Shown here piece by piece: positions 4,195 to 60,400 of a DNA stretch of 64,000 nucleotides. Below the pieces are notes generated by a model, which worked only from the letters and a program-made list of their open reading frames with translations, did no database searches and had not been told where the DNA came from. A program made the translations under genes and the position numbers. Source of the DNA: Candidatus Nanoarchaeia archaeon (lineage in GTDB: Archaea > Nanobdellota > Nanobdellia > SCGC-AAA011-G17 > DATDVL01); NCBI GenBank assembly GCA_035289925.1, contig DATDVR010000006.1:92018-156017 (forward strand). The letters are read 5' to 3'. The number at the start of each line of letters is the position of its first letter. Position 1 is the stretch's first letter.

Positions 4195-5095
4195 GGTCTA
4201 GTTGAAAATCTCTATTTTCAACAAAGAAGAATTATGAATAATTCCTCTCATGTACATGTCTGATCTCTGTGTTTGGATTAATCTAGAGCTAACGCTAGCT
4301 CCATACTTTTGTTTGGTTGCACCAAACAAAGACTCGCTTATCTCCCTTCTATAATAAGTCCTTGTCCTCCAATGCTTTCTCATAATCTTCCTGTAAAATC
4401 CTTTTCTTGTGCTCTTCCTGCATGGAATCATTGAAGTGATTCCATGCTTGTAGCAAAGATGATGTACAGCTTCGCTATCATAGCCCTTGTCAGCTACAAG
4501 AATCCTTGGAGTGGCTGACAATCTTTTAAGCAAGTAAGAAACATCTTTTGTGTCATGCCTTGGCTTTGCACGAAGGCGCAAAGCCAAAATCTTCTTGCGC
4601 CTTGTGTCTACAACAGCACTTAGCTTTAAAGGCCTGCTAATTGGCTTCACTCTGTCAATCCTTTTGATGTAGTGCCAGCTAGGATTTGTCCTACTTATTG
4701 TTGTTGCATCAATGGATGCAACATTTATCTCAGCAAATAAAGCTGTCTGGGCAAACAACTTCTCAATAATCTTAGCTACTTTTTTATTCATCTTGGCTAA
4801 AGCTGAATAAGTAGGTACTTCAAATCCCAGATTATACAAAAGCTTTGCAGCTCTCCTATAGGAGAGCCTGCATGCTTGCCTTATCCAAAGGGCAAGCATA
4901 TGCTGCCAGAATTCATACTTCTTTGGTCCATAGTGATGAAACCATCTTGGCATGTTTGCTCTTCTGAGCAAACGCTTAATTTTATTTACTAGTTTTACTT
5001 CTGTTTTCATGGGTAGCTAAGTCCTACCCCCTAATGTTGCTTTACCCAAAGCACATTAGGTTATTTATATTTTTCTAGACATTTTCAACAACGCC
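4195..5095 (-). mobile_element. IS5-type insertion sequence (DDE_Tnp_1), 901 bp, 9-bp TSD
   Basis: TIRs GGTCTAGTTGAAAAT and GGCGTTGTTGAAAAT (rc); TSD CACTAATTC at 4186-4194 and 5096-5104. Confidence 0.9.
4198..5010 (-). CDS. IS5-type DDE transposase
   Basis: SIDAT, LVADKGYDS, RREISESLFGATK motifs; 270 aa. Confidence 0.9.
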   Translation of the reverse strand: MKTEVKLVNKIKRLLRRANMPRWFHHYGPKKYEFWQHMLALWIRQACRLSYRRAAKLLYNLGFEVPTYSALAKMNKKVAKIIEKLFAQTALFAEINVASIDATTISRTNPSWHYIKRIDRVKPISRPLKLSAVVDTRRKKILALRLRAKPRHDTKDVSYLLKRLSATPRILVADKGYDSEAVHHLCYKHGITSMIPCRKSTRKGFYRKIMRKHWRTRTYYRREISESLFGATKQKYGASVSSRLIQTQRSDMYMRGIIHNSSLLKIEIFN

Positions 5096-5139
5096 CACTA
5101 ATTCAAAAAATATTTAAGGATGTCCGCTTTAATATAAGG

Positions 5140-16010: not shown

Positions 16011-17153
16011 TTACTTTATCTTTTTCAAAATATGTCTTTTTCCACGCCAATCTAAAGCATGCAAAAGAACTTCCCTTATTGTTGAAACTGGAATAACTTT
16101 GATTTTAGCTTTCAATTTTGGGGTAACTAAAACATCTTGCGCATTGGCTTTTGGGATTATAACTTCTTTTAATCCTGCTTGAATTGCTGCTTCTATTTTT
16201 TGTGTTACACCACCAATAGCTAAAACTTCTCCTCTAACTGACAAAGAGCCAGTCATGGCTACAGATTGCTTTACAGGAACTTTAGTCAAAGCTGAAATAA
16301 TTGCAGTTGCTACGGCTATTGAAGCAGAATCTCCTTCTACACCTGACGAAGCAGTCTGCAAAAACTGTACAAAGATATCATATTTTTCTTTTATGTCTTC
16401 GCCAAAATACTTCAAGATAATTGCTGAAACATTTTTTACAGCTTCTTTTGCTATTTCTCCTAATTTCCCTGTTGCAACGAACTCTGTCTTTTTGCCTCCA
16501 ATAGTTACTGCAGATTCTATTGGCAAGACAACGCCTGAATAAGAACCTTCAGATCCCATAACAGCAAGACCATTAACTCTACCAACAGAAGTTCCTGTTA
16601 TCCTGATAATGTCATATTCTTTCTTGTTTTCAATGTACTTGTCTACAATTTGTTGTTCTAAAGTTCTTGACAATCTCTTTGCCCCATAAATGTGCTTTTT
16701 TTCTACAAACTTTGATTTTTCTTCTAAAGCTAAATCGCCAGCTGCTCTTACTAAACCGCCCAGTTCTCTTAGTTTTAATGTTAATTTGCCTGCTCTTCCA
16801 GTTCTTCTTCTAGCTTCGTCAATGATTACATTTACTGCTTCTCTTGTGAAATGTGGAATTTTTTTATCTTTTTCAACTTCCTGAGCGACAAAAATTGCTA
16901 TTTTATCACGATTAGAAACATTGTCATCCATTGTTAGATTCATGTTGACTTCGTAACCATAACCTCTGATTCTAGATCTCAAAGCAGGGTGCATTTTCTT
17001 CATAGTTTCTAAAGTTCCTGCTGCAACCAAAATAAAATCGCAATTGTGAGTAATAATCCCATTAGCCAAGTAGGTTCCATTTAAAGTAGAAATATTATAA
17101 ACATAACCGTCATAATCTATTCTTCTAATATTCTTTATTTTACTTATTTTCAT
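16011..17153 (-). CDS. lon: LonB part 3: IntC of intein 2 (37 aa) plus C-extein with protease domain
   Basis: MKISK...NGIITHN|CDFILVAAG; catalytic GDSAS Ser and GGVTQK Lys; ATG at 17153. Confidence 0.9.
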
Positions 17154-18999
17154 TTTTGCTCCAGAACCGTAATGTTGGAATTGGAATGTTATATAAATTG
17201 GCAACATCTTTTATGGACCAGCCAGAATAGACCCTGCCTAAAACGTCCATCTTAAACTGTTGGTCATATCTTCTATAAGTCGGAGGTATCCTCGCCAGTA
17301 CTGTATTCTTAGATAGTTTTAGTTTTTTTGTTATCTGTTTTATAGTTAAACCCCGTCTTCTTAGTTCATCTATTTTAGAATATGCTTCTACAAGTCTTTT
17401 TTGATTTGCATGATATTTTTTGCCTTCTATTGCGATGTTATGTAAGGAATTATTCTTATCAAATGCATAAGTAATGTTGATGCCGTTTAATAAGTTGGAT
17501 AATTGCTCATAAGAGGTGGCTAATTTAAAAGAATATCGTGCAGCAGACACTTTTTCTCCTTTTAAAGTTTTAATATATTCTTTGCTTTTCTTAGTACTAG
17601 ATGTTTTAACGTTGTTCTTATTAAGAAATGTTTTTATTTCGTCCAGGAAGGCTAGGTGCTCTCTTTCAAATTTATTTATTTTTGCCATTAAAAAATGTGG
17701 GCTATTTGATATGTTTTTTATATTCCCATATAGTTCTGCCGATATTAAGGAACTGAAAAATTCTTTCTCTATAACACTAGAACCATGAATCCAGTTTGGG
17801 ACTTTAAAGGGTTGAGCGACCTTATCATTCTTTGGAACCCCTAATGCAATAAACAACCTAGCAAGATTGGTGTTATTTATTGAGGCTTCAATCCCTTTTT
17901 CAGTCTTTCTTATTTTACAATTTTTCTTTATATCTTCTCCGAATACTTTTTTTGCATCATCTAGGAAAGCGGAGATGTCATTTCCCGCCTTGAGACCCGC
18001 ACTAAAATAAATCCTCCTTATATTAACACCGCCATCGCCGAACAAAACTCCGGATAATCTTGCTAATAATGGCAGACGCAAGTCGTCTCTTGCTAAAGGG
18101 CATATCTTTTTAGAAACGAGATATTCAACTGCCTTTATTGCTCTTGGCTTTGCCCCTTTGATCCAGTTCCTTATAGTACTTTCGTCTACTTCTAATAATT
18201 TTGCTAAATCTTTTTTTAACATATTTTCTGAGAGCTTACAATAAGCTAGATAAGCATACGCAATTCGTTTTTGCTCTTTTGAATAAGTTTCTATGATGTC
18301 TATTTCATTAAAGATTACTTCTTCATCACCATTGTAGCAAACAATATTGTCTGCCGTGTTTAGATTGCCTGCCTTTTCCATACCTTTTATTGTCAGTAGG
18401 GGGTGGTCTGGGGTTACTTTTATTTTAGTTCCATCGTCAAGCTCAATCTCTATAACCTCCCCACAGTATTTAGTCTTATAAAGAACTAAAGGGATATCTT
18501 TCTGAAACTGGGTATTAAACGAAAGGATTTTGTCATTCTGTGAGAGAGGAGAAGAAAGTGTTCTATTTTGGCCTATTCTAACCAATTGCTTTTTTGACAA
18601 ACTGTTTTCTATATAATCCCCTATAGGGGTGTATTTGCCATTAATATGTACTGGCGTGTCTGGAGTCAAACAAGGAACAGCTTCAGTTCTTACCATAGCA
18701 CCAGAACTTCTTTCAGACTGACCCGTAATAGGATATTTTTTCTCCTGCATGGCTGTTAAAAGTTCCTGCTGAGATTGTGGCTGTAAATTTCCAATTTCGT
18801 CTATAAACAAGACTCCTTTGTTTGCACGATGGATCATTCCTGCTATAACACGTTCGTGTGCGGGGGTGCCTAAACCGCCTGAGTTTTTAACTAGAATTTT
18901 ATTAGCAAACAAGTTGCCTGAGGATGTTGTTAAGTTGTATAAATAACCATTATAAGGGATTTTTTCTACTTTCTTGACGCGTTCTGGTTTTAAGTGCAT
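17140..18999 (-). CDS. lon: LonB part 2: IntC of intein 1 (39 aa), 70-aa extein, N-part of intein 2 (510 aa, LAGLIDADG and HTH)
   Basis: ...ILVKN|SGGLGTP...FIDEI...TEAVP|CLTPDT; LSGVLFGDG. Confidence 0.9.
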
Positions 19000-19043
19000 A
19001 ATACTTAGAAGGTAGATGAGTTTTTAAAGATTTTGTTGGGTTT

Positions 19044-19175
19044 GGCTCTGTTGAAAATCTCAGTTTAGTTGTAACATTTAAGCTATAATATTCTTCAATT
19101 TACTAGTGAGCGACTATTTATACGAACCTTCTATTGTAAAGAGATGTAGCTTTTCTAGACATTTTCAACAACACC
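19044..19175. mobile_element. 132-bp MITE copy 1, related to the IS at 4195
   Basis: Ends GGCTCTGTTGAAAAT / ATTTTCAACAACACC; 9-bp TSD GTTGGGTTT. Confidence 0.92.
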
Positions 19176-19190
19176 GTTGGGTTTGTTAAT

Positions 19191-19676
19191 TTACTTTCTA
19201 AAACAGAAAAAGGCAATTGCAACTGCTAAAACAGAGCCAAAAACAAACAAGTAATTTCTTGCCGAAGCATCAGCGACATTATAAATGGAGGCTCCTGTAA
19301 TTGAAGGAATAAATAAGGAGGAAACTAAGACGGAAAAAAGGAGAATAGACGGTAGATAAGAAGGTTTCTTCCTTTTTACTAAAGTGTCTCCAATTCTAGT
19401 AAAGTCCCTATAAGTGACATCCCCTCTTTGAAATGCGGTATATGCCTTATTCAACCGGTCTAGACTTCTTATAAAGGCCCTTTCGTCTCGTGGATTATCA
19501 AATCCTTTAAAGTTTGCACGGTCAAAATTGGGGGCCATGTAAAGGATAAGTTCCCTGCGGTACCTGAGAAATTCTTTATCTGTGGGTTCCTTTCTTTCTT
19601 GAGACTGGAAGAATTCTTCTACTTTATTTAATATTCTTTCTAGCTTTCCTTTTTCCTTAACGTTTATTACCCTCAT
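19191..19676 (-). CDS. Hypothetical protein with C-terminal SITG TM hairpin, between the split-intein halves
   Basis: 161 aa; own TATA; C-terminus similar to 12907..13437. Confidence 0.65.
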   Translation of the reverse strand: MRVINVKEKGKLERILNKVEEFFQSQERKEPTDKEFLRYRRELILYMAPNFDRANFKGFDNPRDERAFIRSLDRLNKAYTAFQRGDVTYRDFTRIGDTLVKRKKPSYLPSILLFSVLVSSLFIPSITGASIYNVADASARNYLFVFGSVLAVAIAFFCFRK

Positions 19677-19711
19677 AGTAGTTTTTAGATGAAAGAGGTA
19701 TTTAAAATTAT

Positions 19712-20722
19712 CTAACTATCTAATGTTAAAACTTTGTGCCAAGGCCTAATTTTGTCTGCATTTATATATTTTATTTGATTAAAGATAGTTTTTACAGCCA
19801 CTTTATGCTCTGGTGTTACAATTAATTCTTTTCCATATTCTGTTGTTATTTTAATTAAATTTCCTTTTCTTTTGTGTTTGTTTACTGATAAAACCTCTAC
19901 AGCTTCAATTTTGTTGTTTTTCTCACCAAGGATAGTTAATTCCTTATTTGAAAGGAATACCGCATTATAACTTCCTTTTTTAATTAAGTCTTTCTTATGT
20001 TTTTTTAATAATTGATCAACAACATCAAATTTTGTATATTGTAGTAAATATTGATTATTTTTTGTTGGTTGTAAAACTATTATGTCATCACTGTAGGATG
20101 ATAAAAAACATTGCAGAGGATCGTGAAGTACGTCCCCGAGTAAAGAACCTGCATGAGCGCCAGTAGCGTCTACAAAAGGAGCTTTGTCCTTGTCTGAAGA
20201 ATCAATAAGTAATTTTGGGATTCCAGATGTATTTGTTTTCATTCTTCTAGCCATGTTGATATAAATTACAAAAACTGCCAAAAAAATCATTGAGCTTACC
20301 AAAGCAGCAGCTGCCAATATATCCCCATACTGCTTTCTAATCCACCAAGGAGAGAAAAGTGACAATAAAACTAGGAAAAAGAAAAGGAAGTTTTGGGATT
20401 TAAATGAAGAGTTTAGTTGTAGTTTAGTTTGGTCTATCAGCTGCTTGCCTTTGCCTTTAGGCATTGTCCTGACCAAAGGAACATTTTCATCACTTGAATT
20501 TGGAAAAATAAGAACGTCAAGCAATTTTTCTTTCGGCAATAACTCTGCCAAGGCTTGACCTGTCAAAGATTTTCCAGTGCCTGGCTCTCCAATCAATAAA
20601 ACATTTCTGCGTTGTTTTGCTGCTTTCTTGATTATCTCTACAGCCTCTTCCTGGCCTATAATCTGGTCTACTGTGCTCTTAGAGATATTAATATCTGCTG
20701 TAGTTTTGTAGTTTAATGGCAT
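19712..20722 (-). CDS. lon: LonB part 1: 204-aa N-extein plus 132-aa IntN
   Basis: GEPGTGKS Walker A, two TM helices, HDPLQ|CFL...VTPEHK...ADKIRPWHKV. Confidence 0.92.
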   Translation of the reverse strand: MPLNYKTTADINISKSTVDQIIGQEEAVEIIKKAAKQRRNVLLIGEPGTGKSLTGQALAELLPKEKLLDVLIFPNSSDENVPLVRTMPKGKGKQLIDQTKLQLNSSFKSQNFLFFFLVLLSLFSPWWIRKQYGDILAAAALVSSMIFLAVFVIYINMARRMKTNTSGIPKLLIDSSDKDKAPFVDATGAHAGSLLGDVLHDPLQCFLSSYSDDIIVLQPTKNNQYLLQYTKFDVVDQLLKKHKKDLIKKGSYNAVFLSNKELTILGEKNNKIEAVEVLSVNKHKRKGNLIKITTEYGKELIVTPEHKVAVKTIFNQIKYINADKIRPWHKVLTLDS

Positions 20723-20757
20723 TTTTTAGTTAAATGAAAGAAAGTATATAAACGTTT

Positions 20758-39534: not shown

Positions 39535-39591
39535 TCAACACCTCTTAATAAAGCTCAAAGATAGAGAATATATAAAGCTTATGGCTATTTT

Positions 39592-39723
39592 GGCTCTGTT
39601 GAAAATCTCAGTTTAGTTGTAACATTTAAGCTATAATATTCTTCAATTTACTAGTGAGCGACTATTTATACGAACCTTCTATTGTAAAGAGATGTAGCTT
39701 TTCTAGACATTTTCAACAACACC
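39592..39723. mobile_element. 132-bp MITE copy 2, identical to copy 1
   Basis: 9-bp TSD GGCTATTTT at 39583-39591 and 39724-39732. Confidence 0.92.
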
Positions 39724-39725
39724 GG

Positions 39726-59548: not shown

Positions 59549-60400
59549 ATGATAAATCAAATTAAGACTGTCTTGCTTTTAGGGATATTAACTGCAATAA
59601 TGCTATTTATTGGCAGCTTATTTGGAACTACAGGACTGACTATAGCCTTAATACTTGTTTTAGGCATGAATTTGATAAGCTATTTTTTCTCACATAAAAT
59701 AGTGCTTGCTATTTATAGGGCCAAGGAAGCTAGTAAAAAGGATTATCCTAAATTACACGCAATTGTTGAAAATGTAGCTAGAAAAGCAGGAATTCCTAAG
59801 CCTAAGGTTTACATAATACCTAGTGACAATCTGAATGCCTTTGCTTCTGGAAGGAATCCTAAAAATGCAGTTGTTGCTTGCACAGAAGGAATATTGAGGG
59901 TTTTAAATGAAAAAGAGCTTGAAGGAGTTTTAGCTCATGAAGTTTCTCATGTAAAGAATAGAGATATTTTAATAGGGACAATTGCAGCTACAATTGCTGG
60001 AGTTATAACCTATGTAGCGCATATGGCAAGATTTGCTGCTATATTTGGCGGAGGGAGAGATAGAGAAGGAAATTCAAACATAATAGGTCTGTTACTTATT
60101 TCAATAATTGCGCCTATAGCTGCAATGATAATACAATTAGCAATCTCAAGAGCAAGAGAATATCATGCTGATGAAAGCGGAGCTAAATTATTGAAAGATG
60201 GAGAAGGATTAGCTTCTGCTTTGTTAAAGCTAGAAAAACATAATAAAATGCACCCAATGAGATTCGGCTCTCCATCGTTTTCTCATTTATTTATTAGTAA
60301 TCCATTATCTGGCGGAGGGCTAGTTAATTTGTTTCTAACCCACCCCCCAATTCACCTTCGTGTAAAGAAACTAAGAGAATTGAGCAAGAGCTTTGGATAA
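59549..60400 (+). CDS. htpX: HtpX zinc metalloprotease
   Basis: NAFASG, AHEVSH, SRAREYHAD, THPP. Confidence 0.93.
   Translation: MINQIKTVLLLGILTAIMLFIGSLFGTTGLTIALILVLGMNLISYFFSHKIVLAIYRAKEASKKDYPKLHAIVENVARKAGIPKPKVYIIPSDNLNAFASGRNPKNAVVACTEGILRVLNEKELEGVLAHEVSHVKNRDILIGTIAATIAGVITYVAHMARFAAIFGGGRDREGNSNIIGLLLISIIAPIAAMIIQLAISRAREYHADESGAKLLKDGEGLASALLKLEKHNKMHPMRFGSPSFSHLFISNPLSGGGLVNLFLTHPPIHLRVKKLRELSKSFG

Follow-up and report, generated by a model that had tools for sequence, protein, structure and literature searches.

A LonB protease predicted to be joined from three polypeptides by two split inteins in a nanoarchaeal genome

The DNA considered here, a stretch of 64,000 nucleotides from contig DATDVR010000006.1 of a Candidatus Nanoarchaeia archaeon (assembly GCA_035289925.1; the whole stretch is called the window below), carries the gene for the archaeal membrane protease LonB in separate open reading frames (ORFs) whose broken ends encode halves of inteins. 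A preliminary description of this DNA, made from the sequence alone, had proposed a natural trans-splicing split intein in LonB, and sequence comparison supports that proposal through the recurrence of the split in about 65 species, the conservation of the catalytic residues, the ratio of nonsynonymous to synonymous substitution rates (dN/dS) and the gapless product that is obtained when the inteins are removed. From these comparisons it appears very likely that the only LonB of this Woesearchaeota-type DPANN archaeon is made from separately translated polypeptides that are joined by split inteins via protein trans-splicing. A second split intein interrupts the same protein, and we think it probable, with somewhat less assurance, that this is a natural three-piece LonB in which two related split inteins that do not cross-react join three polypeptides in order, and that such split forms are transmissible as cassettes.

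A LonB gene broken between Walker A and Walker B

Four consecutive ORFs lie between 20722 and 16011 on the minus strand, ORF1, ORFx, ORF2 and ORF3 (coordinates are window positions throughout, and every feature of the LonB locus is on the minus strand). The three that encode parts of LonB, ORF1, ORF2 and ORF3, keep their original order and orientation and span 4.7 kb. ORF1 (20722..19712, 336 aa) matches positions 2-196 of the LonB model TIGR00764 and continues into an intein N-terminal region (TIGR01445, 33.5 bits with a cut-off of 24.5, and PF14890). ORF2 (18999..17140, 619 aa) covers LonB positions 195-266 and then runs into a second intein N-terminal region with helix-turn-helix motifs, and ORF3, for which ATG 17153 is the best start (380 aa), opens with an intein C-terminal motif that is followed by LonB positions 266-606. 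We refer to the N- and C-terminal intein halves as IntN and IntC and to the two sites as a and b. The pieces, in the direction of reading, are as follows.

20111..20722, minus strand: LonB N-extein, residues 1-204 (TIGR00764 positions 2-196, E=8e-58; aligns to T. onnurineus LonB, 3K1J)
19715..20110, minus strand: IntN-a, 132 aa, with Cys1 and block B TPEH (TIGR01445 and PF14890 matches)
18883..18999, minus strand: IntC-a, 39 aa, then Ser+1 (PF14890 positions 121-155 of 155, E=0.002)
18673..18882, minus strand: LonB middle extein, 70 aa, from SGGLG through Walker B VLFIDEI to RTEAVP (TIGR00764 positions 195-266; gapless on 3K1J)
17143..18672, minus strand: predicted IntN-b plus LAGLIDADG endonuclease domain with flanking helix-turn-helix regions, 510 aa (TIGR01445 E=9e-13; RtcB-type intein model E=2e-29)
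17043..17153, minus strand: IntC-b, 37 aa, MKISK...GIITHN (TIGR01443 20.8 bits, cut-off 15.6; PF14890 positions 121-155, E=1.6e-5)
16014..17042, minus strand: LonB C-extein, CDFILVAAG..., with AAA+ lid and S16 protease domain (TIGR00764 positions 266-606, E=5e-140; Lon_C; aligns to 3K1J)

The N-extein contains the Walker A motif GEPGTGKS and the membrane insertion and ends in ...GDVLHDPLQ, directly after which comes the Cys1 codon of IntN-a (20110-20108); the half-intein closes with a TAG stop at 19714-19712, so that ORF1 ends, as the preliminary description had it, in a 132-aa IntN with Cys at 20110, a TPEH block and a clean stop. IntC-a begins at ATG 18999, 712 nt after the IntN-a stop (a gap of about 710 bp had been given), and its match to PF14890 (Pfam Intein_splicing) comprises the final 35 model positions. 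It ends in ILVKN before SGGLG, with the Asn codon at 18885-18883 (VKN/S at 18885-18880), and the earlier reading of ORF2 as opening with a 39-aa IntC that ends KN/SGGLG thus holds. IntN-a is 43-79% identical to the IntN of relatives and IntC-a 94% identical to the IntC of the relative L026, while a profile of the IntN family finds the Mja KlbA intein of M. jannaschii (2jmz) with E=1e-8. Site a, HDPLQ/SGGLG, separates Walker A from Walker B, which leaves neither half able to act as an ATPase alone.

Together the three LonB pieces cover TIGR00764 positions 2-196, 194-267 and 266-607, and each alone scores below the model cut-off of 516.6 bits, as fragments would. When both inteins are removed in silico, a protein of 617 aa remains; it matches 3K1J with E=1e-210 (704 bits) and is gapless at HDPLQ/SGGLG and at EAVP/CDFIL, and the expected rejoining of the exteins as DPLQ-SGGLG is thereby reproduced. 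The 916-kb assembly (16 contigs, 88.5% complete) holds these three LonB pieces only and no further lon gene, so the intact lon elsewhere that the preliminary description had weighed against its proposal was not found in it.

A second split intein at site b

The second break, site b, lies at RTEAVP/CDFIL (LonB position 266/267), where IntN-b starts CLTPD. ORF2 runs through IntN-b and the endonuclease to a TAA stop at 17142-17140, and the ATG of IntC-b (17153) sits inside the end of ORF2, giving a 14-nt overlap. The AlphaFold2 (AF2) model of the site-b endonuclease domain has a mean predicted local distance difference test score (pLDDT) of 91.7 and takes the TliVMA intein endonuclease, I-DmoI and PI-SceI as its top Foldseek matches; a sequence search of the PDB with an endonuclease alignment returned no match, and the LAGLIDADG character was seen by fold search. 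The site-b endonuclease domain is 23-30% identical to the site-a endonucleases of relatives, and IntC-a and IntC-b share 15 of 37 residues.

No other site-b intein was found among 240 genomes of the order; three candidate matches proved to belong to site a or to inteins of other genes. A second species found as a protein cluster, L113, has the same kind of stop/start overlap at site b and an IntN-b that is 48% identical to that of the window. Its locus is ordered as N-extein-IntN-a-endonuclease, a PD-(D/E)XK gene, IntC-a-middle extein-IntN-b-endonuclease and IntC-b-C-extein, and in a tree of LonB C-exteins it falls in the other deep LonB clade from the window. Since a second species keeps the site-b junction, the comparison indicates that the site-b split is real and conserved and that the LonB of the window is a three-piece protein, which would need two trans-splicing reactions. 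It is also because this junction is common to two species in different deep LonB clades that the split forms look transmissible as cassettes.

The same split in related genomes

Of the 41 nearest genomes, searched with the LonB model, 12 have a break at model position 195/196, distributed over several families of the order, and most of the others have an uninterrupted LonB of 616-663 aa; across the order the site-a split is present in about 40 of 240 genomes. For a survey of layouts, species-representative genomes were scanned with the IntN alignment, which yielded 70 loci, each of which was scored by profiles of IntN, IntC, both exteins and the intervening endonuclease. Almost all of these loci carry the label Candidatus Woesearchaeota, Nanoarchaeia or Nanoarchaeota. 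The search of DPANN genomes for the same split, which the preliminary description had called for, thus found the split state in 64 of the 70 loci, and about 65 genomes at species level, from Woesearchaeota and related Nanoarchaeia, carry it. The layouts fall into these types.

34 loci: N-extein, IntN and endonuclease in one ORF, with IntC and C-extein in a separate ORF
15 loci: IntN, a free-standing endonuclease gene, IntC
7 loci: IntN, an endonuclease remnant, IntC
8 loci: halves without an endonuclease between them
1 locus: contiguous mini-intein
5 loci: IntN only (contig end or unrelated host)

At half of the fused-endonuclease loci (17/34) the junction is an ATGA stop/start overlap, and elsewhere the spacer is at most 613 nt long; IntC has its own ATG or GTG start in all 12 of 12 close relatives. 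Protein searches added many further clusters, with N-halves of about 330 or about 680 aa and C-halves of about 455 aa, and three more contiguous mini-intein LonBs, the mini-intein forms being 786-795 aa long. At exactly site a, a Micrarchaeota LonB of 1156 aa has a bifunctional intein in contiguous form (HDPLQ/CFF...VSN/SGGLG), with an endonuclease of the same family.

The LonB C-extein tree separates a group with free or lost endonuclease, to which the window belongs, from a group with fused endonuclease, with support 100/100, and the endonuclease was lost several times. In the small clade to which the window belongs, L026 has the endonuclease, L030 has nothing, and the window has ORFx and a repeat. 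Passengers between the halves occur elsewhere as well, namely a PD-(D/E)XK_5 endonuclease-like gene (L113:3227-3649), a RibD_C-domain gene (L112:1106-1855) and, on the opposite strand, a 368-aa ORF of no known family (L014:2506-3609).

Catalytic residues, selection and fold

Residue 1 of intein a is always a nucleophile across 67 loci (Ser in 37, Thr in 18, Cys in 12), block B reads TPEH in 61 of these, TPKH in 2 and SPEH in 1, and both the last intein residue, Asn, and the +1 residue, Ser, are invariant in 64 of 64. Between the window and L026, dN/dS is 0.137 for IntN and 0.036 for IntC, with values of 0.11-0.15 for IntN in other close pairs, and both intein halves are therefore under strong purifying selection.

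The AF2 model in this case is of the contiguous mini-intein L085, not of the window's two chains (pLDDT 83.6, predicted template modelling score 0.79). Its top Foldseek matches are all inteins, PhoCDC21-1, Pho RadA, Mja KlbA and TvoVMA, with probability 1.00 and TM-scores up to 0.86, and the contiguous family member is thus predicted to fold as a HINT (intein) domain. MAFFT alignments that mixed IntN-only and IntC-only rows placed the second half of IntN onto IntC, since the HINT fold is pseudo-twofold symmetric; they were not used for folding, and the alignment for folding contained IntN rows only.

Thr, a rare N-terminal nucleophile for inteins, stands at residue 1 in 18 of 67 members (L028, L038, L047, L051 and 14 other loci). 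Most members of the family combine Ser1 with Ser+1, so that their catalytic nucleophiles are cysteine-free.

The DNA between the halves of intein a

Between the halves the preliminary description had placed a gene and a miniature inverted-repeat transposable element (MITE), and a 161-aa ORF (ORFx) and a 136-nt MITE-like repeat are indeed found there. Its further statement that no endonuclease remnant lies in between agrees with a search of the gap at 19000-19711, where a hidden Markov model of the family endonuclease gave negative scores and tblastn gave no match. The features here, with the promoter-like boxes of the neighbouring LonB ORFs, are the following.

20745..20752, minus strand: TATA-like box TTTATATA, starting 30 nt 5' of the ORF1 ATG, in agreement with the window-wide mode at -30..-27
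19191..19676, minus strand: ORFx, an orphan ORF of 161 aa, hydrophobic at its C-terminus and preceded by a TATA-like box at -30 (no family match)
19041..19176, no strand assigned: MITE-like repeat, 136 nt, with imperfect terminal inverted repeats GGTGTTGTTGAAAATGTCT ... AGATTTTCAACAGAGCC (further copies in the genome)
19021..19028, minus strand: TATA-like box TTTAAAAA, starting 29 nt 5' of the ORF2 ATG and ending 21 nt before it, outside the repeat

Searches of Pfam, NCBIfam and PHROG gave no match for ORFx, and none of 40 relatives has a homologue; the one similarity seen, to a second ORF in this genome, is confined to the C-terminal 55 aa. We considered whether it might be a degraded or novel endonuclease and dismissed this, given that it is unlike the family's endonuclease and matches neither the libraries nor any of the 40 relatives. 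ORFx is a passenger between the intein halves. The repeat has further copies elsewhere in the genome, three at 99-100% identity and one at 79-80%, all with unrelated flanks, and has no match in Rfam. A second copy lies within the window at 39589-39724, and partial repeat ends, isolated copies of the terminal 22-26 nt, occur near 5071-5108 and 59737-59775.

TATA-like boxes show a sharp peak at -30 to -27 from the start codons of the window's long ORFs. In all, 29 of 52 long ORFs have one starting in this range, with -29 the modal position, and because the boxes peak there most genes of the window look leaderless. ORF1, ORFx and ORF2 each have such a box, while ORF3 has none. The TATA element that the preliminary description saw 21 nt upstream of the ORF2 ATG is present, as a motif, in TTTAAAAA. 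The 41 nt at 19031-18991 are 78% identical to the region 5' of IntC in the closest relative, L026, and TATA-like boxes precede IntC in other species too. The repeat was dismissed as the source of the ORF2 promoter, since its end is at 19041 and a relative without the repeat shares the conserved TATA region.

Points against trans-splicing and alternative explanations

Several observations weigh against a LonB assembled by trans-splicing. The penultimate residue of intein a is Lys and not His (in the family Lys in 55, Ser in 6, Ala in 2 and Arg in 1, never His), position 4 of block F is Asn in 64 of 64 and not Asp, and the block F His is absent. The Pab Lon intein reportedly has Lys in place of the penultimate His and still splices. 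Splicing by inteins that lack the penultimate His is documented (review PMC4031507), and this His and the block F residues assist splicing and are not obligatory. IntN-a has a net charge of +9 and IntC-a of +5, so the two lack the charge complementarity of DnaE or gp41-type split inteins. ORFx, being without homologues, may not be a real gene. Site b is known from two lineages only, and the run of five A residues (A5) beside its junction allows a +1 slip, by which some read-through product might be made.

If the genomic layout itself were an artefact, it would have to combine a chimera at the repeat (site a) with a homopolymer indel at site b. Two short contigs from other runs do stop 71 nt before ORF2, at the repeat, and the loss of a single A in the A5 run at 17154-17158 would be enough to fuse ORF2 with ORF3. 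The exact 619-aa ORF2 is nevertheless present on 15 contigs from at least five samples. The five contigs that were compared come from five different samples; over 2.6-5.2 kb they agree with the window at every base (100%), all of them have the ORF2/ORF3 overlap, and the three longest span ORF1, ORFx, the repeat and ORF2. The assemblies that contain the locus derive from ERZ27254752, ERZ27254754, ERZ27254845, SRR3989342 and SRR2090153. Because these three independent contigs are base-identical across the whole locus, the misassembly at the MITE that the preliminary description had raised is excluded; related species that were assembled independently have the same splits, and assembly or sequencing error as an account of the locus is a negligible prospect. 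Hardly more credible is decay of a lon pseudogene that mobile DNA has broken, in an organism that either lacks Lon or has another copy. A MITE-like repeat and an orphan ORF inside the gene are what such decay might leave, and a second lon could sit in the missing part of a genome that is 88.5% complete. Against this, three long open frames cover the LonB model end to end with both junctions exact, no second lon is present in the assembly, and the split-bearing relatives have only weak partial matches elsewhere in their genomes. The preliminary description had likewise allowed for decay of this copy, and dN/dS of 0.04-0.15 for the halves, with the split layout kept in about 65 species, indicates purifying selection instead.

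The most serious alternative, though still an unlikely one, is that the intein halves serve as a non-covalent dimerisation module and that the LonB pieces work without a peptide bond. Split-intein halves bind tightly, which might suffice to unite the AAA+ halves; the penultimate His and the block F Asp and His are absent from the family, and the computed evidence shows no chemistry as such. Binding alone, on the other hand, would not need a nucleophile at residue 1, a last Asn or a Ser+1, and these are kept in 67/67, 64/64 and 64/64; residue 1 drifts among Cys, Ser and Thr only, block B TxxH is kept, and the contiguous alleles of the site-a intein must splice if LonB is to be functional. At site b alone, a +1 ribosomal frameshift on AGC-AAA-AAT-G would turn the two ORFs into a contiguous, cis-splicing intein: a tRNA-Lys on AAA could re-pair one base downstream (again AAA), and the next codon would be the IntC ATG. 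L113 has AGA-AAT-G at this place, which is not slippery, yet its stop/start overlap is kept, and IntC-b opens with its own ATG in both species; the analogous junctions at site a have ATGA overlaps, or else spacers as long as 613 nt, which are beyond the reach of any frameshift. We regard frameshifting as less probable again than dimerisation, and a slip on the A5 run as a minor possibility. Trans-splicing at both sites is the reading that we carry forward.

Proposed mechanism and history

If trans-splicing operates as proposed, ORF1 would produce LonB(1-204)-IntN and ORF2 would produce IntC-LonB(205...), each from its own TATA-like box and probably as leaderless messages from separate promoters. 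For ORF3, which lacks such a box and overlaps ORF2, transcription together with ORF2 and coupled translation are probable. The 132-aa IntN and 39-aa IntC would associate into a HINT fold and carry out class 1 chemistry, in which an acyl shift at Cys1, attack by Ser+1 and cyclisation of the terminal Asn would leave a peptide bond between Gln204 and Ser205. IntN-b, carrying the endonuclease, would pair with IntC-b, and a second class 1 reaction would yield the mature membrane LonB of 617 aa. We infer the expression of each piece, the splicing and the lack of cross-reaction between the two inteins from the features described above.

The series of layouts among the relatives suggests a history in four steps. 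A bifunctional LAGLIDADG intein would have occupied site a; a stop/start would then have arisen between the endonuclease and IntC; a second break would have freed the endonuclease; and the endonuclease would finally have been lost, with the gap in the window later gaining ORFx and the MITE. The short region with the putative IntC promoter and the start has stayed conserved with the nearest relative.

Further observations on LonB inteins in the lineage

Six loci of the survey (L056, L057, L060, L077, L078 and L083) have in common a 220-320-nt insert after the endonuclease TGA and before IntC. It starts ...aaaaagctttcccct... and ends with a TATA-like ...cttttaaaaaa... ahead of the IntC ATG, and it could represent a further small element or else a conserved block of promoter sequence.

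In L016 (G018), L024 (G024) and the proteins P0113 and P0139 a third LonB intein site lies inside Walker A, GxPG(TGK)/C...HN/..., so that LonB in this lineage has at least three intein sites. The inteins at this site are contiguous and have a LAGLIDADG domain of their own. Within the genome of the window another IntC-like match occurs in a 1755-aa open frame (G000:C12:8420-8527), which implies at least one more intein-bearing gene there.

Two points concern the bins. Records named 'uncultured Methanosarcinales archaeon' (L052, L056, L061, L063, L064, L068-L070, L072, L079, L082, L084 and L085) have LonB exteins that nest among Woesearchaeota, and these bins are probably mislabelled. Two different IntN-a variants, L017 and L018, occur in one bin on contigs that end or start at the same place (G019, contigs C28 and C23), which suggests that the bin contains strain heterogeneity or else a collapsed duplicate.

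Significance

To our knowledge, natural split inteins are few. If the trans-splicing reading is right, a large and old family is added to them whose host, a membrane AAA+ protease of DPANN archaea, is a cellular protein outside replication, and the only Lon of these reduced cells would depend on post-translational ligation, in the window organism twice. Such obligatory ligation could affect the dosage or timing of the protease. A possible control point, as the preliminary description suggested, would have the separate promoter-like motifs as its sequence correlate. The relatives preserve a series of forms, namely contiguous bifunctional, endonuclease fused to IntN, free-standing endonuclease, bare split and split with passengers, and this series makes the origin of split inteins and of 'fractured genes' directly testable. 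What the window copy adds is that it has lost the endonuclease, carries passengers and would be part of a three-piece LonB. Use of the family as a ligation tool is plausible, with mostly Ser or Thr at residue 1 and Ser+1 as cysteine-free nucleophiles, and if the window's two inteins are orthogonal they would be a naturally co-evolved pair for ordered ligation of three fragments.

Comparison with known systems

A literature search (full text, with few subscription journals) found neither a split LonB intein nor a natural three-piece trans-spliced protein or assembly by two split inteins; as far as we found, ordered joining of three polypeptides by two split inteins has been described for engineered systems only. 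Contiguous LonB inteins have been described from Euryarchaeota (PMC4760082; PMC3906313), among them those of the Thermococcales, where the Pab Lon intein has 333 aa and the Pfu Lon intein 401 aa (PMC3906313). These reside in the same host protein, the archaeal membrane LonB, but they are single polypeptides that splice in cis, whereas the intein in the window is cut into separately translated halves.

The natural split intein of DNA polymerase B in Nanoarchaeum equitans is likewise found in a housekeeping gene of a DPANN archaeon and has no endonuclease. Its host protein differs, and its halves lie far apart in the genome while those of the window LonB stand in one locus; unlike the N. equitans case, LonB in relatives retains the contiguous, endonuclease-fused, endonuclease-free-standing and bare split forms. 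With the Ssp and Npu DnaE inteins the LonB family has in common a clade-wide and vertically conserved split at one site of an essential protein, an IntC of about 36 aa and a split at the canonical endonuclease insertion point. DnaE, however, is a bacterial polymerase whose intein uses Cys1 and Cys+1, whereas the LonB family has Ser+1 and mostly Ser or Thr at residue 1, and the DnaE halves are strongly charge-complementary while the halves of LonB intein a are not.

The 'fractured genes' of marine metagenomes (Dassa et al. 2009, PMC2677866) encode DNA synthesis and repair enzymes, are mostly phage-like and have GIY-YIG or Vsr-like endonucleases. The likeness to the window lies in a conserved enzyme gene that a split intein breaks at one locus, with order and orientation kept and other coding DNA between the halves. 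The free-standing endonuclease of that layout occurs in the window's relatives (15 loci with it intact, 7 with remnants) but not in the window. The LonB host is a cellular archaeal protease, and the endonuclease of the family is the intein's own LAGLIDADG domain, which is still fused to IntN in many species and in the window has been replaced by an orphan ORF and a MITE. The window locus is thus a derivative of the 'fractured gene' layout and not a member of it.

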